Counted from the stretch's first letter, positions 926 through 20,298 are shown. The stretch is DNA of 64,000 bases from Thermodesulfobacteriota bacterium (GCA_965116725.1 OZ220700.1:77897-141896); one strand, 5' to 3'. The notes: generated by a model not told the origin, from the sequence alone. Numbers and translations are program-made.

Positions 926-1944
926 GTGCATTTCAACTTCTCCTTGTCGAAGACAATGAGAAAGAAATTAATGTCTGCAAAGACGCTCTAGAGACATACC
1001 AAAAGGTAAAACAGCGAGAAGTAAATCTTATCGAATGCAAAAACCTTAAAGAAGCCTTGTCAAAACTCGACAGTTCCATTGACGGCGCAATCATAGACCT
1101 GAAGCTTCAAGGCAAAGCGCATGAAGGCAATAAGGTTCTCATCGAAAACGAAAAGCTCCACTTACGGATTCCAGTTGCCATCCTTACAGGGACACCTGAT
1201 GAAGCAAACGTGAACTGCGCAAATATAGGGGTTTTCAAAAAAGGGGACCCTGGAACAGGATATGCTGATCTGCTGGAGCGTCTCTGGAATATCTATGAGA
1301 CCGGACTGACCCGCATCATGGGCGGCAGAGGCACCATTGAAGATACCCTGAATGAAGTGTTCCGTAACAGTCTTCTTCCGCGAATAGATGAATGGATGAA
1401 GTACAGTGAAGCTGACCCTAGCAGAACTGAAAAATCTCTCCTACGTCATACTCTAAATCATTTGCTCCAACTTCTTGATGATGAACATCCTTACTATCCC
1501 GAAGAAGTGTATTTGCATCGGCAGCCTACCACAGAAACTTGGACCGGCAGTCTTGTGAAAAAGAAAGAGGAGGATAAGTGGTTCGTTGTAATGAATCCGG
1601 CCTGTGACCTAGTCAGACGGGAAAATGGTCGTCCGAAGACTGACAGAATCCTCATTATCGAAGTGGATTCCATAAAAGCGACATCTCGAAAAGAACGAAA
1701 AGAAATGTCTAAAAATAAGGAATTACATTATCATTTGCTGCCTGAAACAGATTTTTTCAAAGGAGGTCTCCTGAATTTCAGGAAACTGACTACTCTGGAA
1801 ATCGGAGAGTTCGAAGAAAAATTTGAGGTTTCTCAAATACAGATATCACCGTCTTTCGTTAAAGATATTGCGTCGCGCTTTTCCTCATATTATGCCCGGC
1901 AGGGACAGCCGGATATCGACTTTGATAAATTCATCGATCCTTGA
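922..1944 (+). CDS. Response regulator: N-terminal receiver (REC) domain with an uncharacterised C-terminal domain of about 200 aa
   Basis: LLVEDNEKE ... IIDLKL matches a receiver domain with a phospho-acceptor Asp. A GGAGG sits 7 nt before the ATG at 922. The ATGA overlap with the upstream kinase suggests coupling. The C-terminal half shows no motif I recognise. Confidence 0.6.
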   Translation: MSAFQLLLVEDNEKEINVCKDALETYQKVKQREVNLIECKNLKEALSKLDSSIDGAIIDLKLQGKAHEGNKVLIENEKLHLRIPVAILTGTPDEANVNCANIGVFKKGDPGTGYADLLERLWNIYETGLTRIMGGRGTIEDTLNEVFRNSLLPRIDEWMKYSEADPSRTEKSLLRHTLNHLLQLLDDEHPYYPEEVYLHRQPTTETWTGSLVKKKEEDKWFVVMNPACDLVRRENGRPKTDRILIIEVDSIKATSRKERKEMSKNKELHYHLLPETDFFKGGLLNFRKLTTLEIGEFEEKFEVSQIQISPSFVKDIASRFSSYYARQGQPDIDFDKFIDP

Positions 1945-2343
1945 ACCAAATAGACCGAATCCAGAAACGCCGAGAAACATGACGAATACGCATTGATTGC
2001 TAAATGGTTCTGTCTATTATTCAATTATTCTTCTTGAACATGCAGAAGAAATAAGAGATCAGATTGAGGAATGTCAAGTGAAATATATTCCTATACGGAA
2101 GATAGAAACATTATCTTTAAATATTTCAGAGTTACCGTTTCTGAAACTTTATCACTGTAGAGCCGAAAAAGAATATAGAGTAATCTATGTAGACACTGAA
2201 GTTTTAACCAAACCTAAGGACTATGATATTAACTTGCATTGGATAAAATGGATTTGTCTTAGTCTTTGGATGCCAGAATCATTTTTAGAATCCGTGAAGA
2301 AAACTCTAAGATTCATTCCCGGCTGTAAAAAACGGAGAGATAA

Positions 2344-2676
2344 CAATCGCACAAACAGAAACTTTCACTTCGCGACTGGAGAACCTGCCTATCACGATTG
2401 ACTCTTCCACATGGAGGCAGTCATTTGCTCGGACCATGGTTTCTTGCCCGTTCTTATGGTATCAGCAGATACGACGCGGCCTATCTGGATCTTGCAGTCC
2501 GAGAATCCTTAACACTTGCTAGCTTGGACAGAACACTGGTAAAAGCGGCAGAGAAAGCAGGAGTAAGCATTTATCTTAAAGAAAGGGAAGGGCAAGTGCG
2601 TTATCTGTCTGGGAGTTTTCCGAGCGCTAAGCCTAAAGCAGCAAGAAAACTGATTTATTTCAGCAGACTACGATAA
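2344..2676 (+). pseudogene. PIN-domain (VapC-like) toxin remnant, C-terminal part only
   Basis: GISRYDAAYLDLAVRESLTLASLDRTLVKAAEKAGV resembles the C-terminal conserved block of PIN/VapC toxins. There is no N-terminal PIN half; a stop lies immediately upstream in frame, and the region is AT-rich. Confidence 0.4.
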
Positions 2677-2781
2677 GAAATTAATCTGTTTTCTCTCGAT
2701 ATTCTCTATCCCTTTATTTTACTCTTAAGCCTTGACATGACTCTTTTGATGATTAGTTTGAGAAATGGAGGTACATGCTAG

Positions 2782-3642
2782 ATGCAAACGGCAGTTGCAA
2801 CCTGCGATTCTCTTTCGGTTTTTATGCGGGAGATGGAAAAACATCCGCTTCTCTCAAAAGAGGAAGAGTACGTGCTTGCGGTCAGATATTACGAAAACGA
2901 AGATCTTGAAGCGGCCAATAAACTTGTGGTCTCAAACCTAAGATTCGTGGTGAGAATCGCTTCTGAGTACAAATCCTACGGTTTTCCAATGATGGACCTT
3001 GTTCAGGAAGGTTCGATAGGACTGATGCGAGCCATTCAGAAATTCAACCCCTACAAGGGATACAGGCTTATATCATATGCGGTGTGGTGGATCAGGGCAA
3101 GGATCCAGAACCATATAATGAAGTTCTGGAGCAACGTGAAGATCGGAACCACGCAGTCCCAGCGAAAGCTTTTCCAGAGGATAGAAGGAGCGAAGCGCAA
3201 GCTCGGGATAACTGCCGCTAGTATGGAAGATGACGACATAAGCCGTCTTGCGGACCATTTTGGCGTTAAGGAAGACGAAATCTCCCAGATGCAGGTCCGC
3301 GCTTCCAAAAGAGATCTTTCCCTCTCGGAGCGTCCCGCAGGGGAAGACTCCTCGGCCACTTACGGGGAACTGCTTCCTGACCCGTCGGATAACCAGGAAC
3401 AGGTGCTAAGCGAGTTCGGGTTCGACAGCCTTGCCAGGGAGAATCTGCACGAAGCTCTCAAGACGCTCTCAGAGAGGCAGAAAAAGGTGATAAACGAGAG
3501 GTATTTCACCGAACCTCCAAGAAAACTCCACGAAGTAGCCCGGGATCTCGGGGTTTCCCAGGAGAGGGTAAGGCAGATACAGGCCGAGTCCATAGGGAAA
3601 CTCAGGGGATACATGGCCGAAAAACTTGAAATTCACCCGTAA
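2782..3642 (+). CDS. rpoH: RNA polymerase sigma-32 factor (heat-shock sigma)
   Basis: Sigma-70 regions 2 to 4 are present. The RpoH-type segment W..VKIGTTQSQRKLF follows region 2.4. dnaK starts 26 nt downstream. Confidence 0.8.
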   Translation: MQTAVATCDSLSVFMREMEKHPLLSKEEEYVLAVRYYENEDLEAANKLVVSNLRFVVRIASEYKSYGFPMMDLVQEGSIGLMRAIQKFNPYKGYRLISYAVWWIRARIQNHIMKFWSNVKIGTTQSQRKLFQRIEGAKRKLGITAASMEDDDISRLADHFGVKEDEISQMQVRASKRDLSLSERPAGEDSSATYGELLPDPSDNQEQVLSEFGFDSLARENLHEALKTLSERQKKVINERYFTEPPRKLHEVARDLGVSQERVRQIQAESIGKLRGYMAEKLEIHP

Positions 3643-3668: not shown

Positions 3669-5591
3669 ATGGCTTCTAAGATAATAGGAATAGACCTTGG
3701 AACAACTAATTCATGCATAGCCATCGTTGAGGGCGGCGAACCGAAAGTGATAATCAACGAGGAAGGCACGAGAACGACCCCGTCGGTAGTCGCGTTTCTA
3801 AAAGGCGGAGAAGAGATTCTGGTCGGCGGACCGGCGAAGCGCCAGGCCGTGGCCAATCCCGAAAACACCGTCTACTCCACGAAAAGGCTTATGGGCAGAA
3901 GGTTCGAGGAGATATCGAGCGAAACTTACAGCCTTGCCTACAAGGTAGTGAAATCAGGCAAGTCGGACGCCTGGGTAGAGGTAGAGGGAAAAGAGTATTC
4001 TCCTCCGCAGGTCTCAGCGCACGTGCTCACGAAGCTTAGGAAGGCTGCCGAGGATTACTTGGGGTCTGAAGTCACTGAAGCCGTTATCACTGTTCCCGCG
4101 TATTTTAACGACAGCCAGCGCCAAGCCACAAAAGATGCCGGGAAAATAGCTGGCCTTGACGTAAAGCGCATAATAAACGAGCCGACCGCGGCAGCTTTGG
4201 CCTACGGGTTTGACAAGAAGAAAGAAGGCATGATAGTCGTCTACGACCTCGGAGGCGGAACTTTTGACGTATCGGTGCTTGAGGTCGGAAACAACGTTAT
4301 AGAGGTAAAGTCCACAAACGGCGATACCCATCTCGGCGGAGACGATTTTGACAAGAGGGTGATCGACTACATAATCTCCGAGTTCAAAAAGGATTCCGGG
4401 ATAGACCTCGGGGCGGACAAGATGGCCGTGCAGAGGCTGAGGGAAGCCGCCGAGAAAGCCAAGATCGAGCTTTCAAACACCGTCGAGACGGAAATTAACC
4501 TGCCGTTTATAACGGCCGATGCGAGCGGTCCAAAGCACCTTGTGATGAAGATAACGCGTTCAAAGTTCGAGCAGCTCATAGAAGATCTTATAAAAGGCAC
4601 GCTTAAGCCCTGCGAGCAGGCCCTTAAGGACGCCGGACTTCGCCCGGGCGAGATAGCCGAGGTAATACTGGTTGGCGGATCGACCAGGATCCCGCTTGTG
4701 CAGAAAGTCGTGACTGACTTTTTCGCAAAAGACCCGAGCAGGGGGATAAACCCCGACGAAGTGGTTGCCATGGGGGCCGCCATACAGGCGGGCGTGCTTG
4801 GAGGGGACGTAACCGATGTGCTCCTTCTCGACGTGATACCGCTCTCCTTGGGTATAGAAACCCTTGGAGGGGTCATGACCACTATAATCGAGAGAAACAC
4901 GACCATTCCCACGAAGAAAAGCCAGGTTTTTACCACAGCAGAAGATAACCAGAACTCGGTTGAGATCCACGTGCTGCAGGGGGAGAGGCAAATGGCTGCC
5001 GATAACAGGACGCTTGCTAGGTTCATCCTGTCGGGGATTCCCGCGGCTGCAAGAGGGATTCCGCAGATAGAGGTCACTTTCGACACGGACGCCGACGGAA
5101 TACTCCACGTATCCGCCAAGGACAACGCGACCCAGAAGGAGCAGAAGGTTAAGGTCGAGGCTTCAAGCGGGCTAAGCAGCGATGAGATCGACTCCATGGT
5201 CGAAGAAGCCGAGAAGATGTCCGAGAAGGACAAGGAGAAAAGCGAGCAGGTTCAGAAGAGAAACCAGCTTGACGAGCTTGTTTACAGGACCGACAAGAGC
5301 TTCCAGGAGCTTGGCGATGGTCTCTCCGAGGATGAGAAGAAGGATCTAGAGCAGGCCCTTGAAGAAGGAAGGGAAGCGCTTAAGTCGGATGATCCGACCA
5401 GAATTGACCAAGCGACAGAGAAAATAACCGCTGTTTCCCACAAGCTTGCGGAGCTTATGTATAAGAAACAGCAGGAAGAGGCTGCTGAACAGGGTGCCGG
5501 GGAGGGTGGACAGGAAGGTTCTGCGTCTGGGCAAGGAAATTCCACCTCGGGCGATGATGTTATAGACGCCGAGTTTACCGAGCAAAAGTAA
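3669..5591 (+). CDS. dnaK: Molecular chaperone DnaK (Hsp70)
   Basis: [18 protein letters not shown] and [10 protein letters not shown] are textbook Hsp70 signatures over the full length. An AGGAGG RBS is present. Confidence 0.97.
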
Positions 5592-5949
5592 GCCTCGAAT
5601 TCAATTCCTCCCCCTGTTTTTCATTGAGAGGGCATCGCTCTTCTAATCGGTAAAAAGAGTGCCGAAATAGTTTTGCTAGGGGAGTTATATATCTAGCTTC
5701 CCTAAACTAGACAATCTACTCAAATAAGTAAGGAGCTAGGGCTACGATTTGTCCATTGGGTAGAGAAACATTATAATTTAAAAGCTCGTTTCATCAAACG
5801 ACAAAAATGCTTCCATCACTCTTTTTGTGCTAATAACTTCGTATAATCAGTAATTATTTCTTTAAGTGGTACTCACAAATGTCACGTTAAATCCAATGAG
5901 CGACTTCTGATCTACGGAAGACTTGGTTTGATCACGAAATCAGGAGTAA

Positions 5950-6251
5950 TATCCCAAGAAATATAACAATGCCAACAGTCTCGGACTAAAGTTTCACCTC
6001 CACAGAAGAGATTTGCCGGATTCGCCGGACCTGATTTCCCCAAGGAGAAAAACAGCACTGTTTGTGCATGGATGTTTCTGGTACAGACGCAAGAATTGTT
6101 TGGGAGCAACGACTCCAAAAACCAACATTGAGTACTGGAACAACAAATTCAGGCACAATATGGAGCACGATAGGGAAAGCAGAAGAAAATTGAGCATAAC
6201 AGCTGGAAAGTCTTTGTGATATGGGGTGTGAAACAAAAACTAGGAAATTAA
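5950..6251 (+). pseudogene. vsr: Very-short-patch repair endonuclease (Vsr) remnant, N-terminally truncated and frameshifted
   Basis: LFVHGCFWYRRKNCLGATTPKTNIEYWNNKFRHNMEHDRESRRKL matches the Vsr core (FVDGCFWH ... PKTN.EFW ... RD). The expected C-terminal SWKVFVIWG block continues in the +1 frame after an A-run near 6180. The first roughly 30 residues are missing. Confidence 0.6.
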
Positions 6252-6311
6252 TAGAAGCTTTTTAAAGGAAAAACTTTTTAATCTAACTGTCAATTCTTCT
6301 ATACATCCCGC

Positions 6312-7901
6312 TTAGGTGCCCATTACCGCACCGGCTTCCATCATAATAGCCTCGATTTCGGGGCGCAATTTATTTGGTATCTCTGCTGCTTGGTTTATCT
6401 GAACATATTTGAAAGTGTTTAGATCAAACGGCACCCGGTCGTCACACTTGGCAGGTTCAAACAAGAAAATAAGGCGGTTCTTCTCGTGGTGCTTAAGGGC
6501 GAATCCCGCTTCGATATAGACATTGGGACGATGACCTGTAAGGTCGCAAACAATAATGTCAGAAGAAGCGATGGCCTCATACATTCTGGAATGAATGGGA
6601 AAAGTGCCGCCTTCCTCAGTTCCCATGTCGATCAGCTCAAGTCTCATACCATGAACTTGCTGAAAAGTATTGAGTGTTTGTTGAAGTTGTTGGAACCGTA
6701 ACACCGCTTTATCGTAGGCATTTTCCGGTGCATCCTGAGCCGGATACCAGCGGGCGAGAAAAACGCGATTGGGGATACGGGACTGTGCCACCTTGAAGGT
6801 TTCAAGTAACTGTTGTGCTGGAGAAATCGGATTCAACAAGTTGGTAATGCCATGGTCGCCTAGCCAATGGCCAATCCGATCAAGGCAATCCACTGTTCGG
6901 CGAACCTTCTTTTCGTGATCTTCCCCATTTTCTTCATGCCAGACTAGAGCAGCCAGTTCAAGGAAGCCATGCGTTTTGCAGAGAGAAGGATGGTTAACTT
7001 CCAACTGCGTAACGATATCGGATAATCCTGCAAACAAGTCATTTGCGAAACTAGTCAATGTTTGTCGATCTCGGGCGATAGCCGCATCCATGTTGATCAT
7101 GTTTCGAGCAGACTCCCACAAGGCAGTCAGTGGACGCTCACCGAATCGCCGCCTTGTCGGTTCCGGCAATCCCTTCAGTTGATTCGCCAGAAGTCGTGTC
7201 AAGTGCAGTTCTTTACTATAGGAAAACTCGTTGTCCGGTGTCATTGCATAATCTGGGTGCTGGCCGAGCAGCAGGTGCATTCCGTGTTCCGATTCTAACG
7301 GCAGCGCAGTGCTGTTGATGGTATGAAAGATCAGCGATTCCGAGAAATCGTCGGCGTCACTATCTGGTGGCCCAAGCAACACCATGCAAAATGGTGCAAG
7401 ATATTTTTGCGGAAGGTTCACGTCCTCCTGCAAATTTTCAGCAAACGCCAGCCGATGGTTTCCATCAATACGGCGGATGAGCTTATCCGCCTTAATTGCT
7501 TCCAATTCACTAGACTTCACCCGCAGTTTCTGAATACGGTGATTCTTTCCTGTGAAACGCCTTCCCATCCTGATGAGGCCATAGCCCTTTGTTTCAATAC
7601 CTACGGTTTCATTGTCAATCTGGATCGGCTCTCCTTCACAACGGACAGCGAGAATCACCTCTGGGATGAAGCGATTGTCACTGTATTCCAGATAGTTCTT
7701 AATATCTTCTGCGTGTTTAGCGTCAAGCTTGCGTTGGTGACCGTCTACTTGACCAGTCTGGTCACCAACAGTCATTTGATAGGGAACGGAAACCGCCGCC
7801 AGATCACGCAAGTCAGCAAAACCACGAATGATCTTGAAGATGCCGAGAACCCCTGCCGAAAACAGTCCTTCGAATTCGATGTATTGTCGTCGACGGGACA
7901 T
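6312..7901 (-). CDS. Fusion protein: DndB-like DGQHR (ParB/Srx-fold) domain N-terminally, nucleoside 2-deoxyribosyltransferase-like (NDT-like) domain C-terminally
   Basis: The N-terminal region carries a QR motif (GHQRKLDAKHAEDIKNYL), a DGxHR motif (IDGNHRLAF) and FHTINSTALPL, typical of DGQHR/DndB-like proteins. The C-terminus has DLTGHRPNVYIEAGFAL, the ExGxA catalytic block of NDT/DNPH1-like domains. The start lies 2 nt after the hsdS stop on the same strand. Confidence 0.55.
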   Translation of the reverse strand: MSRRRQYIEFEGLFSAGVLGIFKIIRGFADLRDLAAVSVPYQMTVGDQTGQVDGHQRKLDAKHAEDIKNYLEYSDNRFIPEVILAVRCEGEPIQIDNETVGIETKGYGLIRMGRRFTGKNHRIQKLRVKSSELEAIKADKLIRRIDGNHRLAFAENLQEDVNLPQKYLAPFCMVLLGPPDSDADDFSESLIFHTINSTALPLESEHGMHLLLGQHPDYAMTPDNEFSYSKELHLTRLLANQLKGLPEPTRRRFGERPLTALWESARNMINMDAAIARDRQTLTSFANDLFAGLSDIVTQLEVNHPSLCKTHGFLELAALVWHEENGEDHEKKVRRTVDCLDRIGHWLGDHGITNLLNPISPAQQLLETFKVAQSRIPNRVFLARWYPAQDAPENAYDKAVLRFQQLQQTLNTFQQVHGMRLELIDMGTEEGGTFPIHSRMYEAIASSDIIVCDLTGHRPNVYIEAGFALKHHEKNRLIFLFEPAKCDDRVPFDLNTFKYVQINQAAEIPNKLRPEIEAIMMEAGAVMGT

Positions 7902-7902
7902 A

Positions 7903-9234
7903 TCAACTTGCCCCTACAGGATGAATGCCGAGGATCATCTTTTCAATATCGGTTTCCCGGTCGATCAATGTACCGTTGGCAGCGCTGATGTTTTTCATTA
8001 TTTTTAGTCGGCGTTGTGCGAAATCTTGCTGAACAGCGCCAGATATTTCGGGAAGCCTGATCTCGGCTAAGTTCGCATAGTACATTCGTTGTTTCACACC
8101 GCCCACTCGGTTGAATGAAACAAGCGAGAGAAAATAGTCCGTCCGCAGCAAAAGCGCCATGAAATCAGGAAGAAAACCGTTTTTTATCCGCCATACTTGA
8201 TATTCTGGACTGGTAATCGCATCATTCGGTACATCCGGCACGATACCGAGGGAACCGACATTGGCGCGGGTCGGGTTATGGAAAAACCAGTCTTTCTCGA
8301 TCTTCTTGTATGACGCATTGAAATCCTTGCCCTTTTGTATAGAACTTAGGAAAATTCCTTCTTCATTGTTAACGCCATATATGAACCATTCCTTCTCAGG
8401 TTCCACCCAAGGTTTGACGGTTTCGGTACATTCCTCAGTATAATCGCCCAGCCGCACAAATTCAGGATTGGTGGAAATGAAAGCAGCTGCACGTCCGGCT
8501 TTTACATCCCATTGTGTAGCATTAGCGTAGTTGGCAAAAAAGACCCTGGAACGGGCGGTTTGACTAAAGGCGTGTGTTTGGTTTGCGAGATAAGTGTGAA
8601 GTTCAGAAACCAAATCCGATAAAGCCACTTCCGCTGCAAATAAATCTTGCCGCGCGGCCGCCCAGTACGCCTCAATCTGCCGCTGAACAGGTAGCGACGG
8701 GACAGGGACTCTAACTACTTCCAACTGTGCTGGTTGAATGCGCTTGCGCCCAGATGTCCCACTAACCATCGAATTTAGATATTTCTTAAACGCCACTGTT
8801 CTAAACAGGAGTCTTATATAGCCCGGAATCGCTTTATCTGTTTTTACTGAATAGACGGGAAACTCCGATGTGACACACATATTCTCAATATCGTCTGGCG
8901 CAAGGCCAATCGCGCCATTGCGTACATCGATCTTCGAGAAAACTACATCACCCGGATGCGCACGAAATAGTCTTCCCTTGATGTCTTTGATTTGAATGGG
9001 AACACGTGGTTCAATTGAACCGTCAAAGCGAATGGTGAGCAACGTGACCCTTGTCTCTGGAGATAGAGTGGCAAGTGCAGCTTCGCTCCTTCTTTCCAAT
9101 ATCTGATTCAATGGCTGGATGATTTCATCAGGCCAATTCCAATTGACAGAAAATTGGGCTGCTACAGACCAAGATGCCAGTTTTTGAAAAGCAACTGAGA
9201 AGGTTCTTGGGCGAAGTAGAGAATCCATACTCAT
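7903..9234 (-). CDS. hsdS: Type I restriction-modification specificity subunit (HsdS), two target-recognition domains
   Basis: A central conserved spacer LEVVRVPVPSLPVQRQIEAYW and a C-terminal conserved LPEISGAVQQDFAQRRLKIM repeat separate two variable TRDs. The start overlaps the methyltransferase stop as ATGA. Confidence 0.85.
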   Translation of the reverse strand: MSMDSLLRPRTFSVAFQKLASWSVAAQFSVNWNWPDEIIQPLNQILERRSEAALATLSPETRVTLLTIRFDGSIEPRVPIQIKDIKGRLFRAHPGDVVFSKIDVRNGAIGLAPDDIENMCVTSEFPVYSVKTDKAIPGYIRLLFRTVAFKKYLNSMVSGTSGRKRIQPAQLEVVRVPVPSLPVQRQIEAYWAAARQDLFAAEVALSDLVSELHTYLANQTHAFSQTARSRVFFANYANATQWDVKAGRAAAFISTNPEFVRLGDYTEECTETVKPWVEPEKEWFIYGVNNEEGIFLSSIQKGKDFNASYKKIEKDWFFHNPTRANVGSLGIVPDVPNDAITSPEYQVWRIKNGFLPDFMALLLRTDYFLSLVSFNRVGGVKQRMYYANLAEIRLPEISGAVQQDFAQRRLKIMKNISAANGTLIDRETDIEKMILGIHPVGAS

Positions 9235-11462
9235 TCTTGCGTGCCTATGATCATGGCGAAGGCCTCTGGGTCAGCCAGAAATTGCCGGTACCACTCCACA
9301 CACGTCTTTTCGATCTCCGGGGGCTGATTGGAATTCGGATAAAGCTCGTTCTGATCCTCCTCGCCGGTAGCAGAAATACCGACCTTTTCTGCTTCATACA
9401 TAAAAATAGGATAGTCGAAGCGTTCCTTGACAAGTTGCCTGGTTTCGGAATGTTTTCTAGCATCCATCTCTTTCGCGTAGTCCTTCAGTTTCTTTTGCAT
9501 GGTCTTACGCGTTTTGGCATCCCTGTTGTCTTTGGCTCGCTGAATAGCGGCTTCCAATAGTGCTTTTTTCGTTGCTATTTCCTCTGCGTACTTGTCTTCT
9601 ACCTCATCCGTGGCAGCAGCAAGGGTTGCGTCGAACCACTGTTGCTCTTGTTCGGTGAATTTCTTCAAAAAGAGCAGCGAACATTTTACACTGGCCCCAG
9701 AACTTATAAAAGTCTCCTCTGGAAGACTTACCACGGCGCGCAGAAAAGCACGGTCTTCGGTGAATTGACGCACGTAAGCCAGCGAGGGATTGTTGTAGAT
9801 ACCTTCGGGCAACACGATCCCCAATCGACCACCGGGTCTAAGCAGGTCAAGGCAACGTTCGATAAACAGTATTTCTGTCTTTATCTTCGCCCGGTTGCTT
9901 TTTGGCAGATCAAACAGGCTGGCAATGGGCTTGTTAAGTGCAGCCCTTACTCTGTCCTGAGCAGCGCGGTAAATATCCCCGTATTCGCTTATGTAGGACT
10001 GCTCTGCCACTGAGTTGACCGTAATATCGGTCTCAAGCACTCTATCGGAAGGTTCGACATTGGCACCGAAAGGCGGATTAGTCAGGATGATGTCAAAACG
10101 ACCCTCGAAGATACCATTGACGTTTAGAAAGCCATCGTGATGATGTACGCCCCCGTGCCCGTCACCGTGCATGATCATGTTCATCTTACTGGTACGCGCC
10201 ATCCTGTCATTGGCATCTGTTCCATAGATGCAGCGATTCGATAGGTTCCACAATCGGGAGCCTTCGCGCTGCTGGTCAATGGACGACTGAATTTCTGTAT
10301 ATTTATCCTGAAGCATTTTGGCTTTTTTTGCTGCGGGCAATGATTTTTTTACGTCAATGCCCTTTTTGTAGGTGTTATATTCCCGGTCGGCGTCTTCCAG
10401 TATTTTTTCCCGCACGAGTTCAAAAACACGGATTAAAAATCCACCTGAACCACTGGCGGGGTCACAGACAATTTCACCTTCTTGAGGATCGACCATGCGT
10501 ACCATGAATTCGACGATGGAGCGTGGAGTGAAAAACTGACCGATCTCTCCCCGAAATGTACGCCCAAGAAAGCGTTCAAAAGCAACACCCTTTACATCTT
10601 CGCTGGTATCGGAAAGGTTGTATTTCTCTAGCTTCCGAACAATCTCTTCACCGGTGGCTGGCCTCAAGTTGATGCGCTCTTCTTTCTCAAAAATCTTGTC
10701 ATTGGCGTAAGCGTTCTTTGTGTTTTGAAAAAGGGTATCTAGCGGATTTTCGGAAATCTGATCATGAAGCACATCAACAGTAAACAGATTCTTCCTATTA
10801 CGTCGGGTCAACAACTGCCGTTCCACATAGACTTTCGTGAACAACACTTTGGCGATCTCATCAAAAGCGGCCGCCGGGTCCTTCTTTTCTCTGTTACGAA
10901 TGATGTTGTGGCACTGGTGTAATAGATCGGCGAATTCTTTTTCCTTGAAGGCGCGCAATTTGGAGAATAATTCAGTAATATCACTGTCCGAAGCATCACC
11001 ATGCGGAATATTTTCGATTTCCTCAGTGTAACCGGGCAGTTTATCTTTTATTATTCGCCAGTATTTTGTTTCCCGCGAATTATGGGTAACAAAAAAGGGT
11101 GCGCCACAGATACGCGCATAATTTTCGCCCTGATTGTAATCCTGAGCTTTGATCGTGACGTTATCGGATTTGCATTCGACAATAATAAAGGGAGCGTTAT
11201 TGTCCGCTTTATCCTGTTGCGTCCGCCATATGACGAAATCCGCTCTAGCCCCGGCACTACCCGGACCGGTCAGATCTAGTTCCTCCGATATTTGGGCGGG
11301 TGTGAAACCATATTCGTTGATCAGTATCAATAAGTAATTTTGTCGTACGGTCTCTTCGGGGGTTTCAACTAACCATTTACTGCGAATGTAGCTCCAGATT
11401 TGTCCTTTTGACTCGTCTCGTTTGATATTTAAGGCACTCATATCTCGGTGTTTCCTTTGCAA
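9231..11462 (-). CDS. Gamma-class N6-adenine DNA methyltransferase (HsdM-like) with an N-terminal HsdR_N-type PD-(D/E)xK domain
   Basis: Motif X/I (QFFTPRSIVEFMV ... DPASGSGGFL) and motif IV (ILTNPPFG) are present. Residues about 60 to 130 (ADFVIW ... FIIVECKSDN ... QGENYA) resemble the HsdR N-terminal restriction-endonuclease-like domain. Confidence 0.85.
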   Translation of the reverse strand: MQRKHRDMSALNIKRDESKGQIWSYIRSKWLVETPEETVRQNYLLILINEYGFTPAQISEELDLTGPGSAGARADFVIWRTQQDKADNNAPFIIVECKSDNVTIKAQDYNQGENYARICGAPFFVTHNSRETKYWRIIKDKLPGYTEEIENIPHGDASDSDITELFSKLRAFKEKEFADLLHQCHNIIRNREKKDPAAAFDEIAKVLFTKVYVERQLLTRRNRKNLFTVDVLHDQISENPLDTLFQNTKNAYANDKIFEKEERINLRPATGEEIVRKLEKYNLSDTSEDVKGVAFERFLGRTFRGEIGQFFTPRSIVEFMVRMVDPQEGEIVCDPASGSGGFLIRVFELVREKILEDADREYNTYKKGIDVKKSLPAAKKAKMLQDKYTEIQSSIDQQREGSRLWNLSNRCIYGTDANDRMARTSKMNMIMHGDGHGGVHHHDGFLNVNGIFEGRFDIILTNPPFGANVEPSDRVLETDITVNSVAEQSYISEYGDIYRAAQDRVRAALNKPIASLFDLPKSNRAKIKTEILFIERCLDLLRPGGRLGIVLPEGIYNNPSLAYVRQFTEDRAFLRAVVSLPEETFISSGASVKCSLLFLKKFTEQEQQWFDATLAAATDEVEDKYAEEIATKKALLEAAIQRAKDNRDAKTRKTMQKKLKDYAKEMDARKHSETRQLVKERFDYPIFMYEAEKVGISATGEEDQNELYPNSNQPPEIEKTCVEWYRQFLADPEAFAMIIGTQE

Positions 11463-11530
11463 ACTAAGCTATCTTGGACAACCTCTTCTGAAAAGGTCGT
11501 GGTTTCTTGTTTTATTCTATTGCCCTGCTT

Positions 11531-11557
11531 GTCATTGGTTGGTGTCGTACCAATGAC
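11531..11557. promoter_or_regulatory. Perfect 9-bp inverted repeat (GTCATTGGT n9 ACCAATGAC) upstream of the methyltransferase operon start
   Basis: Seen directly in the sequence. It lies about 70 to 95 bp upstream of the start codon of the 9231..11462 gene, on the promoter side. A second palindrome CACGGGTACCCCGTG is at about 11600. Confidence 0.3.
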
Positions 11558-12308
11558 CCGTATCGCATAGTCAATATTCGTGTACCTGTTTCGATTTCGC
11601 CACGGGTACCCCGTGTTCGTTGCAATGGGAATTATATACAATCCTACACAAAACTTTGAATTTCTCCCTGTAAGACCTTAACTCTCACTCTTGTTTTAGG
11701 TGATATTTTACACAAATAGAGAGAATGATTAAGAAGAGTTAGAAATGTCTAAGAAGAAACGTAAAACCCTTGGGAAGTCAGACGGAGAGGGGATAGAATT
11801 GAGAAACTGTTTTAACTCTTTCCGACTGAGGAAGCGACGGTGAAGTAGTTTGAGGAAAGACGCTGGCCAATACGTACAAACAACGGTGACAGCCGATTAA
11901 AGCCCGGCGAATACCTTTTAGAATCTGGCTCTCCAGATTCAGGTTCATATAATTTTCTGGATCCATATCGACTCGACTTCGTGCTCTTTGTCGTACTTAA
12001 AATGAAAGGACAAAGAACATTACACAAGAGCTCGCTAGCTGGACATAGCTGTTAGGTTATTTGGGCCGGCCGAAAATATCGGATCAGAAAGCTACGCTGG
12101 AAAGGCTTACTAAGAAGTTCGAACATGAAAAAGAAAAACCAAACTAAGAAAACTCGAGACCGGCCAGTCAAGAACTTAAGCAAGCCTACCAATGCCTCAC
12201 CAGAAGAAACAGCTAAAGCAATATCTCTGCCGGCGGAAAAGAAGCTAGAAGTCTCAAAGAAAATCAAGAACTAAGAGTCTGGTAGAATTGTATATAATTT
12301 CCAATCCA

Positions 12309-12575
12309 TTAGATGAAATGTTTGGTCCATATCCAAATTTCAGCAGTAATACACGCTCTGAGCTTCTGCCGTAACTTCTCTGGTGTCTCCCAAACAATAC
12401 GATTGTATTGGCGTGTGTCGAAACGGATTTTCTCTATTACATCTCTACAAGTAAATATCACCGGAATATTGAGTCCATGAGCAAAGTCCGCTTCGTAGTA
12501 GACACCCTATACTGGGTTCTCACTCCTCAGTTGCTAAAGGCTCCGGTCCATAAGTAATTTCCTTAGATTCTCCTT
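12309..12575 (-). pseudogene. Decayed paralog of the NDT-like domain (remnant with in-frame stops)
   Basis: Minus-strand translation gives LRSENPV*GVYYEADFAHGLNIPVIFTCRDVIEKIRFDTRQYNRIVWETPEKLRQKLRA. This aligns with the C-terminus of the 6312..7901 protein (DLTGHRPNVYIEAGFALKHHEKNRLIFLF ... VPFDLNTFKYVQ ... PNKLRPEIEA). It is interrupted by TAG stops and has no start. Confidence 0.4.
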
Positions 12576-13116
12576 CTCCTATCTCCCAGCATTGACGAAA
12601 TCTTTCTAAACGATCCGAGCTGAAGCGAGCCTCATATAAGCGAGTAGAGCGGGTTGCTACGACTGAAAATTGGAAGGATTCATCACGTGCCAAGGAATTC
12701 ATTTTCTCGACCATTTCTTCTTCGTTGGTATCCCACAGTTCTATGTCTCTCGCGTTGCCTCCTTTGTTGTCGATTATCCAGATCCACCAATTCTCGTGTG
12801 AATCGATTCGAAGAGTGAGATGGGGTATGATATCCCGTGAGTCTGCTTTCTGTAACAATTCAGTCTGCTTGCCGAGCTGATCTCGCGTAAGCGATAACTC
12901 CTTGCGCTGAAGGCGGAGTTCTTTGGACTGCAGGAAATACCCGTATACCAGCCAAAGGAAAGCTAGAGGTGTGAAGAGACCTGCAAGAAAGTCTCCCAAC
13001 TCGCTAAGGTTGCCTGCCTTTAAGAGCTCCCATGCATCGTTACTGCGGAAAAAGAGAATGGCGACAATGTAGAGAATACTCAGGCCAACTATTATCCAGG
13101 AATTAGAAAACTTCAT
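12520..13116 (-). CDS. Hypothetical membrane protein (two predicted N-terminal TM helices, coiled-coil-like middle)
   Basis: Hydrophobic stretches WIIVGLSILYIVAILFF and LAGLFTPLAFLWLVYGYFL. It is AT-rich. Its 3' end overlaps the NDT-like remnant in another frame, so it may be the decayed N-terminal half of one former gene. Confidence 0.4.
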   Translation of the reverse strand: MKFSNSWIIVGLSILYIVAILFFRSNDAWELLKAGNLSELGDFLAGLFTPLAFLWLVYGYFLQSKELRLQRKELSLTRDQLGKQTELLQKADSRDIIPHLTLRIDSHENWWIWIIDNKGGNARDIELWDTNEEEMVEKMNSLARDESFQFSVVATRSTRLYEARFSSDRLERFRQCWEIGEGESKEITYGPEPLATEE

Positions 13117-13454
13117 TCTTCCGCCTTCCGCGTGTCCTACTCCGGAACTTTTGGGGTTCAGGGTTTCCCTCAGAAGTCGCTAGCAGATTTCGCCGCATAC
13201 TCTATAGTAATAGAATTTACTGAATGATTAACAGGAATCAATAGAAATTATGCCAACCCCTGTTTGCCGCTTCTAGCATTGAAGAAAGAGTGGTCAAACC
13301 ATTTTTGCAGCCATACTTGGGTTTCCTCGAAATAGTTCCGCTCCAGTAGTGATATTTTCCCCCCTGCGGTTAAAATGATTTTCCGAATCCAGGCTTTCGC
13401 TTCAGCTCCAAAGCACCGTTTTGAGCGTCTGAGGCCGGGTTCCGGATTACAAGG

Positions 13455-13477
13455 GCAACATGGTTTTTCCATGTTGC
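13455..13477. promoter_or_regulatory. Perfect palindrome GCAACATGG-TTTTT-CCATGTTGC about 45 bp upstream of aceE
   Basis: A 9-bp inverted repeat with a 5-nt spacer read directly in the sequence. Its position fits an operator or leader hairpin for the pyruvate dehydrogenase operon. Confidence 0.35.
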
Positions 13478-13520
13478 AAATTTCCCCTGCGGCCCCGTTT
13501 CGCCGCGTTTTGCATGGGTA

Positions 13521-16190
13521 ATGGAAGAAGATTCTCAAATTTCGGAAGAAGAAGTTGAAGATCGGGAATGGATCGAGTCACTTGAATACGTGATCGAGAA
13601 CTCCGGCCGCGAGAGGGCAACCGAACTGCTCCGAAAGCTCAGGATATACTCCCAGAAAAAAGGCGTACAGGTTCCCTACGCCGCGAACACCCCCTACGTG
13701 AACACCATTTCCCTCGAGGACCAGCCGCCTTACCCCGGCAACTACGAAATAGAGCGCAACATAAGAAGCATCATAAGGTGGAACGCCATGGCCATGGTCG
13801 TGCGCGCAAACAGGATAAGCGACGGCATCGGCGGACATATATCGACCTACGCCTCGGCCGCGACGCTCTACGAGATAGGGTTCCACCATTTCTTCAGGGC
13901 AGGCGACGAGGGCCGGGAAGGGGACATGATCTACTTCCAGGGACACGCCTCGCCGGGCATATACGCAAGGGCCTTTCTCGAAGGCACGGTCTCTATCGAG
14001 CAGATGCGCAATTTCAGGAGGGAGCTCGGCGGAGACGGCCTTTCTTCCTATCCCCACCCCTGGCTCATGCCGGACTTCTGGGAGTTCCCGACGGTCTCGA
14101 TGGGACTTTCTCCCATAATGGCGATTTACCAGGCCCGTTTCAACAGATACCTCGAGGACAGGGGCCTAAAGCCCAGGACCGACGCCAAGGTGTGGGCCTT
14201 TATCGGGGACGGGGAAACCGACGAGCCTGAGACCCTGGGAGCCATCACCCTCGCGTCGAGGGAAAAGCTCGACAACCTGATATTCGTGGTTAACTGCAAC
14301 CTCCAGCGCCTTGACGGCCCCGTCAGGGGAAACGGCAAGATAATACAGGAGCTTGAGAGAATCTTCAGAGGGGCGGGGTGGAACGTGATAAAGGTTGTCT
14401 GGGGAGGAACCTGGGATCCGATCCTGGCGCAGGATAAAGACGGCTTTCTGGTCGAGAGGATGGAAGCGGCCCTTGACGGGGATTACCAGAGGTACACCAT
14501 TTCTCCCGGGAAATACATAAGGGAGCATTTTTTCGGCACCCGCCCTGAAATCCTGAAGATGGTCGAGGACCACGCGGACGAGCAGCTTGAGAAGCTCGCA
14601 AGAGGAGGCCACGACTCAGAGAAGGTCTACGCCGCCTACAAGGCCGCGGTTGAGAACACCGGTTCTCCCACGGTGATTCTCGCAAAGACCATAAAGGGTT
14701 ACGGTCTCGGGGAAGCGGGGGAGGGGAAGAACATAACCCACCAGCAGAAAAAACTTAACGAAGAGGAACTCAAGCGCTTCCGGACCCGCTTCTACATACC
14801 GATTACGGACCAGGAAATCAGAAGAGCTCCCTTCTACAGGCCTGCTCCCGACAGCCCCGAGATGAAGTATCTGCGCGAGAGAAGGAAGGCACTCGGCGGA
14901 CCCGTCCCGAAGCGGACCGTACGGGCAAAGCCGCTTCGGAAGATTCCGGAACGGGTGTTCGAGGACTTCAAAAAGGCCTCGGGTCCCAAGAGGAAAGTGG
15001 CCACTACCATGGTGATCGTCCACATGCTCTCAAGACTCATGCGGGACAGGGACATAGGAGATCTGATAGTGCCCATAGTCCCCGACGAGGCGAGAACTTT
15101 CGGAATGGAGGCGCTTTTCCGCCAGGTGGGCATCTATTCAAGCGTGGGACAGCTCTACGAACCCGTTGACGCTGACACCCTCCTTTACTACAAGGAGGCA
15201 AAGGACGGGCAGATACTCGAAGAAGGCATAACCGAGGCGGGCAGCATGTCCTCCTTCATAGCTGCCGGCACGGCCTACTCGACACACGGCATAAACACCA
15301 TTCCCTTTTTCATTTACTACTCGATGTTCGGCTTTCAGAGAATAGGGGATCTTATCTGGGCCGCCGCCGACATGAAGTGCAGGGGTTTCATGGTGGGAGG
15401 CACGGCGGGGCGGACCACCCTTGCGGGCGAAGGTCTTCAGCACCAGGACGGAAACAGCCATCATTTCGCCTACGCCTATCCGAACCTAAAGGCCTACGAT
15501 CCTGCTTTCTCCTACGAGATAGCCGTGATAGTCAGGGACGGGATAAAGAGGATGTACCAGGACGGGGAGGAGATATTCTACTACATAACGGTGATGAACG
15601 AGCGCTACGTGCAGCCCGCCATGCCGGAAGGGGTCGAGGAAGGTATAATAAAGGGGATGTACAGGTTCGCGTCTTCTGAGCCCAAGAACTCGGGGAAAAA
15701 GGTCCATCTTTTCGGAAGCGGCGCCATCATGAACGAGGTTCTCTGGGCGAGGGAGGTTCTTGAGAGCGGCTACGGCGTCCCGACCGACGTCTGGAGCATC
15801 ACGAGCTACAAGGAGCTTTACCAGGACGCGAAAGAGGCGGAAAGATGGAACCGCCTAAATCCCGGCGAGAAGAGAAGAAAGAGCTATATTTCAGAGTGCA
15901 TGGAAGGGGAAGACGGGATATTTGTTGCCGCGACCGACTATCTTAAGAGCCTTCCCGATTCCGTTTCCTCCTATTTTCCCAAGCCCCTTGTCTCTTTAGG
16001 CACCGACGGGTTCGGAAGAAGCGACACTCGGGAGGCGCTTCGCGACTTCTTCGAGGTTGACTACCGCCACATCGCGATTGCGGCGCTCCATGAGCTTGCT
16101 AGGGAAGGCAGGATTGACGAAGAGACCGTTAGCGAGGCGATAAGCGAGTTTGGAATCGACCGGGGGAAGCCCAACCCCGCGGTCACGTGA
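13521..16190 (+). CDS. aceE: Pyruvate dehydrogenase E1 component, homodimeric type
   Basis: Full-length AceE-like sequence (ISTYASAATLYEIGFHHFF ... GHASPGIYARAFLEG) of about 890 aa. Confidence 0.95.
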   Translation: MEEDSQISEEEVEDREWIESLEYVIENSGRERATELLRKLRIYSQKKGVQVPYAANTPYVNTISLEDQPPYPGNYEIERNIRSIIRWNAMAMVVRANRISDGIGGHISTYASAATLYEIGFHHFFRAGDEGREGDMIYFQGHASPGIYARAFLEGTVSIEQMRNFRRELGGDGLSSYPHPWLMPDFWEFPTVSMGLSPIMAIYQARFNRYLEDRGLKPRTDAKVWAFIGDGETDEPETLGAITLASREKLDNLIFVVNCNLQRLDGPVRGNGKIIQELERIFRGAGWNVIKVVWGGTWDPILAQDKDGFLVERMEAALDGDYQRYTISPGKYIREHFFGTRPEILKMVEDHADEQLEKLARGGHDSEKVYAAYKAAVENTGSPTVILAKTIKGYGLGEAGEGKNITHQQKKLNEEELKRFRTRFYIPITDQEIRRAPFYRPAPDSPEMKYLRERRKALGGPVPKRTVRAKPLRKIPERVFEDFKKASGPKRKVATTMVIVHMLSRLMRDRDIGDLIVPIVPDEARTFGMEALFRQVGIYSSVGQLYEPVDADTLLYYKEAKDGQILEEGITEAGSMSSFIAAGTAYSTHGINTIPFFIYYSMFGFQRIGDLIWAAADMKCRGFMVGGTAGRTTLAGEGLQHQDGNSHHFAYAYPNLKAYDPAFSYEIAVIVRDGIKRMYQDGEEIFYYITVMNERYVQPAMPEGVEEGIIKGMYRFASSEPKNSGKKVHLFGSGAIMNEVLWAREVLESGYGVPTDVWSITSYKELYQDAKEAERWNRLNPGEKRRKSYISECMEGEDGIFVAATDYLKSLPDSVSSYFPKPLVSLGTDGFGRSDTREALRDFFEVDYRHIAIAALHELAREGRIDEETVSEAISEFGIDRGKPNPAVT

Positions 16191-16203
16191 CGAGGAACGT
16201 AAG

Positions 16204-17499
16204 TTGATAGAATTCAGGCTTCCCGAACTTGGAGAAGGAATTGAATCCGGACAGGTGATAGAGGTTTTCGTTTCGCCCGGAGACAGGGTCACTCTCGAAC
16301 AGCCCCTGCTTGAAGTGGAAACGGACAAGGCCGCCGTTGAGATTCCTTCCCCGGCAGACGGAACAATTGTCGACGTGTGCGTAAGTGCCGGGGACACGGT
16401 GGAAATAAGCCAGGTGCTCGTGAGAATGAACGGGGACGATGAGGGCAGAGAACCCCCGAAGGATGCTCCCGCGGTCGCAGAAGAGGAAAAACCCGCCGCG
16501 CCGCAAGCGCCCCTCCCTGAAAAAGAACCCGAAGAAAAGAAAAAACAGACCACACCACCCGAAAGCGCGCCCGCGGACGATATCGCCCCGCCTGGACCTC
16601 TAGCGGTGGCGGCAGCGCCTTCCGTGAGACGTCTTGCGAGGGAGCTAGGCGTAGAGCTTTCATCCGTTTCGGGAACGGGTCCCCGAGGGAGGATACTTGA
16701 GAGGGACGTAAAGGTTCACGCAAAGGCCATAATAAAGTCTGCGTCTTCCGCTCCGGCGGCGCCCGAGGAACCCGAGCTTCCCGATTTTTCAAGATGGGGA
16801 GAAACAGTTACCGAGAGTTTCTCGACCGTGAGGAAGCTTACGGCCGAGCGCCTCACCCAGGCGTGGGCGGCCCCGCACGTAACGCAGTTTGACAAGGCGG
16901 ACGCCACGCGGCTTGAAGATCTCAGAAAACTTAACAGGGACAAGGTGTCAGAAGCCGGGGGGAACCTTACCGTAACCGCGATTCTGGTAAAGGCCCTTTC
17001 CCTGGCGCTTTCTGAGTTCCCGAAGTTTAATTCAAGCATACATATGGGCAGCCGCACGATCGTTTACAAGAAATACATAAACATCGGGGTCGCGGTGGAT
17101 ACGGAAAGAGGACTTCTTGTTCCGGTGATAAGGGATGTCGACAAAAAAGACATAACGCAGATATCGGTTGAGTTAACGGAGATCTCTTCTGCGGCTAGGG
17201 AGAAAAAGCTCTCTCCTGACAGGCTCAAGGGGGGAAGTTTCACCATAACCAACCTCGGGGGAATAGGGGGGACCTTCTTTACCCCGATTCTAAATCCCCC
17301 CGAAGTCGCCATACTGGGAGTCTCAAGGTCCTCCTTTGAGCCCGCGTATGTTGACGGGGAGTTTACGCCGAGGTTCATGCTCCCGCTTTCGCTTTCCTAC
17401 GATCACAGGATTATAGATGGGGCGGAAGCCGCCAGGTTCCTCAGGTGGCTATGCGAGATGCTTGAGCGCTCTCCCGAGAGCATATTCGAAGGGGTGTAG
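16204..17499 (+). CDS. aceF: Dihydrolipoamide acetyltransferase (E2) of the pyruvate dehydrogenase complex
   Basis: Lipoyl domain EVETDKAAVEIPSP, an Ala/Pro-rich linker, and a catalytic DHRIIDGAEAARFL block. The start is probably the TTG at 16204 after GAGGAA. The track ORF from 16150 overlaps aceE. Confidence 0.88.
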   Translation: MIEFRLPELGEGIESGQVIEVFVSPGDRVTLEQPLLEVETDKAAVEIPSPADGTIVDVCVSAGDTVEISQVLVRMNGDDEGREPPKDAPAVAEEEKPAAPQAPLPEKEPEEKKKQTTPPESAPADDIAPPGPLAVAAAPSVRRLARELGVELSSVSGTGPRGRILERDVKVHAKAIIKSASSAPAAPEEPELPDFSRWGETVTESFSTVRKLTAERLTQAWAAPHVTQFDKADATRLEDLRKLNRDKVSEAGGNLTVTAILVKALSLALSEFPKFNSSIHMGSRTIVYKKYINIGVAVDTERGLLVPVIRDVDKKDITQISVELTEISSAAREKKLSPDRLKGGSFTITNLGGIGGTFFTPILNPPEVAILGVSRSSFEPAYVDGEFTPRFMLPLSLSYDHRIIDGAEAARFLRWLCEMLERSPESIFEGV

Positions 17500-17505
17500 C
17501 AGGCG

Positions 17506-18939: not shown

Positions 18940-19250
18940 CAAAGTAATATTTGGACTGTTCAAACCTTCTTTTGTTTCCGGATTCATCTCTATAGCAATA
19001 CCTTTCTGAAGTCTGGTTGCGGGGATTATCTGCAACAAAGATGTTAATCAGGACCGCGCAGCGCCAGCCGGGAACAGGCTGTTTTTCCTGCTCTTCCATG
19101 ATATAGTTATGACTGTTCGTAGCTAAAAAGGCGGAAACCTTCCTTTTATGCGGAGGGTGCTCCGACTGCAGGGATAAAAAGAGTTTCTGGACCTTGGTAC
19201 AACTTGAAGACGGCTCTTGATAGCGTCTGGAAATAAGGAGGTTTTTTGTT

Positions 19251-19922: not shown

Positions 19923-19930
19923 AACGGAAG

Positions 19931-20281: not shown

Positions 20282-20298
20282 ATACCAGGGAGAAAAGG

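Follow-up and report, generated by a model that had tools for sequence, protein, structure and literature searches.

In a 64-kb stretch of DNA from a bacterium recorded as Thermodesulfobacteriota (the whole 64,000 nucleotides are referred to as the window, and coordinates are positions in it unless a contig is named), the segment from about 5612 to 13344 is very probably the present filling of a gene-exchange hotspot that separates two conserved core operons, rpoH-dnaK and aceE-aceF-lpd, in one clade of sponge-type Candidatus Dadabacteria. The slot holds one intact, horizontally acquired operon of three genes, one orphan gene for a protein with two transmembrane helices (2-TM protein) and three relics, derived from a vsr gene, a ribbon-helix-helix (RHH) gene and an NDT-like gene. 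Locally, sdhA-sdhB-sucC is followed by variable DNA, then by rpoH-dnaK, the interval studied here and aceE-aceF-lpd. The window's own contig is L001 (ENA ERZ25072196), and its host is a sponge-type Candidatus Dadabacteria. The closest relatives by DnaK (83-97% identity) are metagenome-assembled genomes (MAGs) labelled Candidatus Dadabacteria or Thermodesulfobacteriota in the records, together with contigs from the same metagenome series (ENA ERZ250xxxxx); the related MAGs are mostly chromosomes of 1.5-2.4 Mb.

Since base composition alone is no proof of foreign origin, it is the comparison with related genomes that carries the case. The proteins of the window were compared by tblastn with 80 DnaK-anchored loci, each with 10-kb flanks, among which 27 Dadabacteria loci form the close set. 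The rpoH-dnaK pair was found in all 27 of the close loci, and aceE-aceF-lpd follows downstream wherever the fetched DNA reaches that far. The gap between dnaK and aceE is ~170-270 bp in L021, L023, L026, L027 and L032, which are the most divergent members of the close clade. Elsewhere it measures 0.76 kb (L016), 1.6 kb (L012), 2.2 kb (L014), 2.7 kb (L018) or 6.8-9.9 kb (L003, L013, L002, L007 and L024), and in 13 of the 27 loci aceE was not reached, nine of them still lacking it after 10 kb and four lying on contigs that end sooner. This comparison shows that the ancestral state is direct adjacency of dnaK and aceE, at the short spacing of the five empty sites. The occupied slots are those of 22 closer relatives; they range from 0.8 to more than 10 kb, and their contents are mostly unrelated, although parts of islands are common to a few neighbours, such as L004 with L013 and L019 with L025. 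The island genes of the window are absent from all 27 loci, save for a 72% identical copy of the 2-TM gene upstream of rpoH in L019 (8128-8730), so that relatives with the same content at this site were not seen in the close set; the exception is a sister contig, L091, which shares the operon.

The cargo of the other slots points in the same direction. From the 22 occupied slots that were examined, 21 yielded open reading frames (ORFs) of at least 100 aa (L014 has none that long), and the 113 ORFs scanned include four GajA/OLD nucleases, four rve integrases, three KAP NTPases, three Schlafen/AlbA_2 proteins, two Mutator transposases and two HipA toxins. Further cargo comprises UvrD helicases, AAA_14/DUF4143, Endonuclease_NS, a TIR_2 protein, DUF6361 and a vsr-like ORF beside a HATPase_c_3 protein. 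Such cargo is the signature of a defence and mobile-element hotspot, and all three marks of a hotspot, namely conserved syntenic flanks, variable or empty slots and defence-rich content, are found at this position. The initial annotation, made from the sequence of the window, had described an inserted accessory island at a hotspot with repeated gain and loss and had proposed a comparison with related genomes; the variable gaps, the five loci with dnaK and aceE adjacent and the differing cargo of the 22 others support it. The locus resembles the defence islands described by Makarova et al. 2013 (PMC3632139) in its core flanks, in strain-variable cargo of restriction-modification (RM), abortive infection (Abi), toxin-antitoxin and transposase genes, and in the presence of relics beside intact systems. 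It differs from them in that the dnaK-aceE position, paired with a second one between sucC and rpoH, is specific to one Dadabacteria clade, and in that the island has neither an integrase nor a tRNA anchor. The island is a further case of the known defence hotspot flanked by core genes.

The truly variable segment is about 5612-13344. On the left, 20-45 nt past the dnaK stop codon are semi-conserved across loci; by the junctions of the 27 loci this stretch corresponds to 5592-5625 in the window, similarity to L003 ends at ~5611, and the stretch holds the left copy of a short string, CCCCTGTTT. The right boundary is graded: blastn and alignment show that, within the zone 13117-13344, which holds the right copy of CCCCTGTTT, L003 has DNA in common with the window from ~13137 onward and L013 from ~13303. 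With nested breakpoints, all loci converge on a block upstream of aceE, AGTGATATTTT...TGCGGTTAAA, which starts at ~13345. This block (13345-13520, plus strand) is the conserved promoter or leader region of aceE, within which AGTGATATTTT..TGCGGTTA is invariant in 9 of 9 aligned loci, the empty site L021 included, and it lies outside the island. The span originally proposed for the island, 5592-13520, holds up to about 13344 and has to give up its last 175 nt. A 96-aa ORF on the minus strand (13248-13538) was considered as an NDT-like pseudogene and rejected; it has no family match and no similarity to the fusion protein encoded by the third gene of the operon, and it runs antisense over the conserved aceE block.

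The flanks are as conserved and as GC-rich, relative to the interval, as had been claimed. The left flank, dnaK (3669-5591, plus strand; Pfam HSP70, E 4.6e-257), is 83-97% identical in the 27 related loci and has rpoH (2782-3642) directly upstream. The right flank (13521-18939, plus strand) consists of aceE (13521-16190), aceF (16150-17499) and lpd (17506-18939), with matches to Pfam PDH_E1_M, 2-oxoacid_dh and Pyr_redox_2 and synteny in related loci. The GC content is 53.5% in dnaK and 56.6% in aceE, compared with 45.7% in the interval 5592-13520 and 50.6% in the rest of the window, and only 5% of 7.9-kb windows are as low as the interval. The proposed check of codon usage agrees, though weakly: the GC content at third codon positions (GC3) is 0.45-0.51 in the island genes and 0.586 +/- 0.076 in 38 other genes of the window. 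The description of the interval as AT-rich is therefore correct in relative terms and does not serve as an argument by itself, the difference amounting to about 1 standard deviation. The contrast is partly owed to the flanks, both of which are high-GC3 genes. A patch of housekeeping type at 56858-62788 (formyltransferase, SDR and LutC/LutB/LutA-like genes) has a GC content of 0.40-0.47 and GC3 down to 0.34, as low as the island or lower, so low GC is not diagnostic of foreign DNA in this genome, unless that patch is itself an old acquisition.

The intact operon lies on the minus strand in the order M-S-third gene, M and S overlapping by 4 nt and S being separated from the third gene by a gap of 1 nt. 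The M gene (9231-11441) encodes an RM fusion subunit of 736 aa from the ATG at 11441, or 743 aa from a TTG at 11462. This subunit matches Pfam HSDR_N_2 (E 2e-22), an N-terminal nuclease domain of the PD-(D/E)xK type, and N6_Mtase (E 2.6e-34), a gamma-class N6-adenine methyltransferase; the PADLOC MTase_I profile scores 753 bits, and the best solved relative is RM.BsaXI (PDB 8w0p, E 3e-26). Six cassettes from unrelated hosts have the nuclease motif D68-X20-E89-x-K91, the AdoMet motif DPASGSGGF and NPPF without variation, and public records name the protein a type I subunit or plainly an N-6 DNA methylase. The S gene (7903-9234, minus strand) encodes a specificity subunit of 443 aa with two target-recognition domains (TRDs), detected by PADLOC Specificity_I (E 2e-44, two matched stretches) and Pfam Methylase_S. 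Between cassettes the S subunits are 31-97% identical, compared with 66-98% for M and the third protein, which is the pattern that would be expected of a shuffled specificity determinant beside conserved partners. No HsdR (ResIII/helicase) gene is present in the island or beside the cassette in 9 other loci.

The same three genes recur far outside the Dadabacteria. The nine other loci fetched, which come from eight genomes or contigs, all have the order M-S-X, where X is the third gene, with equally tight spacing and without an HsdR gene; they include Metallumcola, Pseudomonas, Trichlorobacter, Zhongshania, Thiodiazotropha, an integrative and conjugative element (ICE) with a type IV secretion system, and L091. 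The nucleotide identity of the cassettes to the window is 68-84% in hosts of 38% to 60% GC, and the 66-98% identity of the M and third proteins extends across Proteobacteria, Firmicutes, Chloroflexi-type and Desulfobacterota hosts. Identity at the DNA level of this order to copies in Pseudomonas, in Firmicutes and on an ICE is explained only by horizontal transfer, and the finding that the M proteins of Pseudomonas and Trichlorobacter fall into one 90%-identity cluster indicates very recent transfer between classes. The carriers known for the cassette are the ICE (L092), integrase islands (L084, and L094 with ArdA, Abi_C and Fic) and positions beside insertion sequence (IS) elements (L086 and L091). 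In L092 the 84% identical cassette (13034-20907) lies in a conjugative element with ArdC, TrbC, VirB3, VirB4 and CagX, and GmrSD and DUF488 genes adjoin it; the DNA similarity between the window and this copy does not extend beyond the three genes and the 164 nt upstream of them.

A search with the third protein gave more than 660 relatives at E 0.001. Identities are 65-97% for the top 120, whose hosts include Pseudomonas, Metallumcola (Firmicutes), Trichlorobacter, Zhongshania, Thiodiazotropha and Dehalococcoidia; a profile search of representatives at 50% identity gave 100 clusters at E 1e-30 and 1388 at E 0.001. In the plasmid collection the third protein had one match, with 20% coverage, inside an 'N-6 DNA methylase' of Leisingera, and among viral contigs it had one relative at 22% identity, without an M or S gene beside it; in both collections the cassette is essentially missing. 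The Leisingera match is a DGQHR-like stretch of 36% identity on plasmid NZ_CP109788.1 (329119-329421) within the ORF annotated as N-6 DNA methylase, and its position suggests that direct DGQHR-methylase fusions may exist. In the literature on DGQHR/DndB, MADS and HsdM/HsdS loci we found no account of the three-gene cassette.

The sister contig L091 shows how the slot can differ between close lineages. It holds the same operon in the same slot, and the 3′ end of dnaK and the vsr relic are 91% identical to the window at the nucleotide level, whereas the 5.7-kb cassette with 524 nt of upstream spacer is 97.4% identical. L091 also carries an insertion (11648-14389) that separates the vsr relic from the third gene, at a point no more than a few bases from window positions 6271-6277. 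It encodes an IS1595 transposase, an N4/N6 methylase and a PDDEXK_5 protein of 163 aa; the last two are likely to be a type II RM pair. Beyond the spacer, a dcm-vsr module takes the place of the 2-TM gene, of which only the last 65 nt are kept. These differences indicate that the slot has been remodelled module by module within one lineage. That the cassette is closer between the two lineages than their core flank fits recombinational exchange.

Other origins of the island have to be weighed against this reading. The content might be ancestral, that is, present in the common ancestor and lost or eroded elsewhere with nothing inserted, as could be argued from the vsr relic and cassette that L091 has in the same slot, from the island parts shared by the few neighbours named above, and from the relics, which prove that loss happens at this site. 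However, the slot is empty in all five of the most divergent members of the clade, it holds unrelated cargo in more than 20 genomes, and the cassette has its 68-84% identical counterparts in Pseudomonas, Firmicutes and an ICE; we regard an ancestral origin as improbable. It is very improbable in our view that an integrase of its own placed the segment at an att site, whether as a classical site-specific island or as what is left of an ICE or prophage, even though the cassette is elsewhere the cargo of an ICE and of integrase islands. None of the scanned island ORFs of at least 60 aa matched an integrase or transposase family, a tRNA scan of the 64 kb found none, and an Rfam scan of positions 1-22000 gave no match. 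Two short collinear matches do link the ends, CCCCTGTTT at 5611-5619 and 13257-13265 and a 28-nt match of 75% identity between 5663-5690 and 13328-13355, but the best local alignment of the island ends scores 21, a value reached by about 5% of shuffled and of real-sequence controls. The two matches were rejected as att sites on account of this chance-level score and also because L003 shares the DNA around the right copy of CCCCTGTTT and has no left copy. The island thus shows none of the integrase, att repeats and tRNA that mark integrase-type islands, ICEs and prophages, as the initial annotation had already noted in suggesting a local-aligner search for att-like repeats and in allowing that the CCCCTGTTT pair could be chance. 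That the similarity to the ICE copy ends at the three genes and 164 nt upstream also argues against a site-specific island. Finally, the source is a metagenome contig at 10x coverage, and a chimeric contig joined at dnaK or at aceE could in principle produce such an arrangement. This is extremely improbable, given that L091, an independent contig from another sample, has the same order of dnaK 3′ end, vsr relic and cassette, and that the right junction is continuous into the block shared with L003 and L013.

We therefore return to the hotspot as the best explanation of the island. Its cargo would first arrive on ICEs or integrase islands, homologous recombination in the flanking dnaK and aceE DNA would then exchange slot content between related strains, and local IS insertion and deletion may edit what is there. 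Several points weigh against this account. In the 13 loci where aceE lies beyond the fetched DNA, its adjacency is assumed; the compositional signal is weak, with GC3 z values of -1.0 to -1.8 for the four island genes; and the recombination route is drawn from a single identity contrast (97.4% versus 91%) and from the lack of a recombinase, with L091 covered at 2x.

The third gene (6312-7901, minus strand) encodes a protein of 529 aa that is named 'hypothetical' in the public records checked and matches no Pfam family at the default threshold (E up to 0.001). Its predicted architecture is an N-terminal DGQHR/DndB-like domain (ParB/Srx-type), a helical middle and a C-terminal N-glycosidase fold of the MilB/DNPH1/NDT type, which is TIR-like. 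The diagnostic motifs of the DGQHR family are a QR pair, the DGQHR pentapeptide and FxxxN (PMC4619093), and the corresponding GHQR (54-57), DGNHR (146-150) and FHTIN (192-196) are invariant in 120 homologues. With these 120 homologues an AlphaFold model was built with a predicted local distance difference test score (pLDDT) of 80, compared with 35 from the single sequence. A PDB sequence search with the family profile returned nothing meaningful; the closest structures are the free-nucleotide N-glycosidases MilB, BcmB and DNPH1, followed by NAD-cleaving TIR domains. The flavodoxin-like fold and the Glu in a (G/N)VxxExG motif, by which the NDT/DNPH1/MilB superfamily is recognised, are both found in the third protein: its NVYIEAG stretch contains an invariant Glu464, which falls opposite the Glu in GVGYELG, the motif of DNPH1. 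That residue is the catalytic nucleophile of DNPH1. From these similarities we infer that the third protein is built like GmrSD and SspE, with a putative ParB-fold DGQHR nucleotide switch and an effector in which an N-glycosidase replaces the HNH nuclease.

The type IIB enzymes BcgI and BsaXI are (RM)2S complexes whose RM gene stands ahead of the gene for a two-TRD S subunit (PMC9159934). The operon agrees with them in gene order, in the N-terminal PD-(D/E)xK and C-terminal N6-adenine methyltransferase domains and in the two-TRD S subunit, so that its sequence answers to the type IIB definition; it differs from them in the third, strictly conserved gene at a gap of 1 nt and in the length of RM (736 aa versus 916). 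For the operon, the type IIB trait of cutting both strands on either side of a bipartite site as an (RM)2S complex is a prediction. Type I RM systems share with it an HsdM-like methyltransferase and a two-TRD, HsdS-like subunit that varies between copies. However, 10 of 10 cassette loci lack an HsdR translocase/helicase and have the DGQHR/NDT-like protein as third gene of the operon, and because HsdR is absent the operon is not a canonical type I system. COG1479/DUF262, which is equated with the DGQHR domain, occurs within a type I RM locus of Campylobacter jejuni (PMC3632139); in the present case a DGQHR protein alone fills the third position, with an effector of N-glycosidase fold. The operon is not a MADS system either, because its scores are far below the cutoffs (NF047738 MAD2 301.8 bits against 720, MAD5 26 against 400); the cassette has no further genes.

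For the third protein the nearest parallels are GmrSD, SspE and BrxU, which occur in or beside DNA-modification systems and likewise have an N-terminal DGQHR/DUF262-type domain (QR, DGxHR, FxxxN) followed by a C-terminal effector (PMC4619093, PMC12839542). The difference is that the effector here has the NDT/MilB/DNPH1 fold and not that of an HNH nuclease, and sequence similarity to these proteins is marginal. NDT enzymes are base-exchange enzymes by chemistry. A further parallel is DpdA/DpdB, in which a DndB-like ParB ATPase works with a base-exchanging enzyme in the insertion of 7-deazaguanine into DNA (summarised in PMC12839542); the cassette differs in having no TGT homologue and no preQ0 genes, its PADLOC DpdB match is weak (E 0.002), and the likeness is an analogy only.

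If these assignments are correct, the S subunit most likely reads a bipartite site within a BcgI/BsaXI-like (RM)2S enzyme, the RM subunit would methylate adenine on self DNA and cut unmethylated DNA through its N-terminal PD-ExK domain, and the third protein would probably add a second attack on invading DNA or on nucleotide pools. We tentatively propose that the third protein is a DNA- or nucleotide-directed glycosidase effector working within the complex. It is likewise possible, short of probable, that M-S-X is an undescribed RM-like defence class in which a BsaXI-like RM subunit and a hypervariable S subunit have a DndB-fold nucleotide switch fused to an NDT/MilB/DNPH1-type N-glycosidase as their permanent partner, and in which restriction proceeds at least partly by removal of bases from DNA or nucleotides, beside the cutting of phosphodiester bonds. 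DNA base exchange by the third protein, by analogy with DpdA/DpdB, is distinctly doubtful; in its boldest form this idea holds that the NDT-type domain may exchange a DNA base at sites defined by the S subunit, as a fused analogue of DpdA/DpdB.

Three observations weigh against this account of the operon. The match of the N-terminus to TIGR03187 (E 2.5e-9, 37.3 bits) is significant but below the cutoff of 58.85, and that to Pfam DndB (PF14072) has an E of 0.002. Asp80 of DNPH1 aligns with an invariant Met in the third protein, so its chemistry may differ. The RM subunit also has a nuclease motif of its own, which bears on the role left for the third protein. An alternative, limited to the mechanism of the operon, is that the third protein is a guard or abortive-infection module of the PrrC/RloC kind that the M-S complex holds inactive; phage anti-restriction proteins that disable this complex would then release it to hydrolyse nucleotides such as deoxynucleoside monophosphates, NAD or NTPs. 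The nearest structures, which act on free nucleotides or cleave NAD, are consistent with such a role, as are the nuclease motif already present in the RM subunit and the ArdA and Abi genes that adjoin the cassette in L094. The N-terminal DGQHR domain, however, is typical of the DNA-binding proteins DndB, DpdB, GmrS and SspE (PMC4619093, PMC12839542), and we consider the guard model unlikely on balance, though a serious candidate; roles outside those named here take up the remaining probability.

The remainder of the island consists of relics, spacer and the 2-TM gene, and every item of the initial inventory (vsr remnant, M-S-fusion operon, spacer of about 1 kb, 2-TM protein and NDT-like pseudogene) was found again. 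The vsr pseudogene (5971-6277, plus strand) covers Vsr residues 32-134, lacks the N-terminus and contains a frameshift and an in-frame stop; it is recognised by TIGR00632 (E 1e-15, partial) and by PADLOC Vsr, and the segment does not hold an intact Vsr ORF of about 135-155 aa. The relic is also present in L091. Its closest counterpart is an intact vsr on the same contig (L001 3196-3600, minus strand), 73% identical in amino acids and 85% in nucleotides over 334 nt (tblastn, blastn), which lies beside a C5-methylase gene ~9 kb upstream of the relic and in inverted orientation. This inverted pair could be a substrate for inversion of the rpoH-dnaK segment.

Upstream of the operon lies an AT-rich spacer (11463-12519). 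The earlier description of it as about 1 kb of non-coding, AT-rich DNA stands as to size and composition (1.06 kb, 41.5% GC) and fails in that the spacer is not empty. It contains an RHH relic of controller-like type upstream of the M gene (11583-11690, minus strand), which tblastn with a 60-aa ORF of L092 matched at 53% over 36 aa; the frame is broken by stop codons in the window, and the counterpart upstream of the M gene in L092 is intact. It also contains an NDT/TIR-like pseudogene of which only the C-terminal 65 codons are left (12309-12506, minus strand). The alignment with 24 homologues at 53-79% identity shows that its EAGFA motif is mutated to EADFA and that its C-terminus is scrambled. 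This relic begins directly past the stop codon of the 2-TM gene and sits between that gene and the spacer, not on the aceE side. Profile-profile comparison by hhalign shows its family to be homologous to the C-terminal part of the intact third protein (probability 92%, E 5e-7), and together with the vsr pair this relic bears out the view that intact and decayed copies of related modules lie together here. Two arms of 27 nt (11621-11647 and 12282-12308), 85% complementary, form an imperfect inverted repeat around 634 nt of the AT-rich spacer. Its core occurs at two places only in the 64 kb, 0 of 100 shuffles reach two matches, and it is not repeated in the other fetched loci; it could be the footprint of a miniature inverted-repeat transposable element or a regulatory palindrome.

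The orphan 2-TM gene (12520-13116, minus strand) encodes 198 aa with two N-terminal transmembrane helices in the hydropathy profile. The protein has no Pfam, PADLOC or NCBIfam match and did not match the 8xMP family that occurs in four other islands. Almost all of its 275 unannotated homologues, among them those of L087-L089, stem from metagenome assemblies; one is from an Acidobacteriota MAG, and the genomes range up to 5.8 Mb. Both of the two homologue neighbourhoods looked up, in other genomes of the same metagenome series, are defence islands, one with Schlafen/AlbA_2, HEPN_AbiV and HigB and the other with TIR_2, PIN and HsdM. In L089 the homologue adjoins an intact TIR_2 gene, much as the 2-TM gene abuts the NDT/TIR-like relic here.

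On the other side of rpoH-dnaK there is a second hotspot, between sucC and rpoH. The gap measures 133-215 bp in L021, L022, L023, L027 and L032 and 4.3-6.3 kb in three loci including this contig, and it is larger elsewhere. In the present genome it is 6.3 kb (window 1-2781 and onward in L001 2820-9113) and contains dcm, the intact vsr, HATPase_c_3, HATPase_c, a receiver-like protein and two small ORFs. The sucC-rpoH gap varies in the same way as the dnaK-aceE gap, so the rpoH-dnaK pair is bracketed by two hotspots. In more distant Dadabacteria-like genomes, whose DnaK is 73-77% identical (L029, L033, L034, L038-L042, L045, L046, L049, L050 and others), aceE is not downstream of dnaK, and a second Hsp70 paralogue of about 55% identity is found ~4.6 kb downstream of dnaK. 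In L014, aceE (14097-16486) matches as two overlapping pieces, residues 1-462 and 439-797, which suggests a frameshift or an assembly error in that MAG.

As an island the locus is ordinary, one more core-flanked defence hotspot in a little-studied symbiont phylum. The paired hotspots around rpoH-dnaK provide a fixed address at which the defence repertoire of this Dadabacteria clade can be sampled. The main lead is the compact and exceptionally conserved three-gene cassette, with a third gene that the public records checked leave as hypothetical. Should the third protein prove to be an N-glycosidase effector coupled to a methyltransferase of defined sequence specificity, the cassette would extend known restriction chemistry, and it could then yield programmable base-removal enzymes guided by the S subunit.

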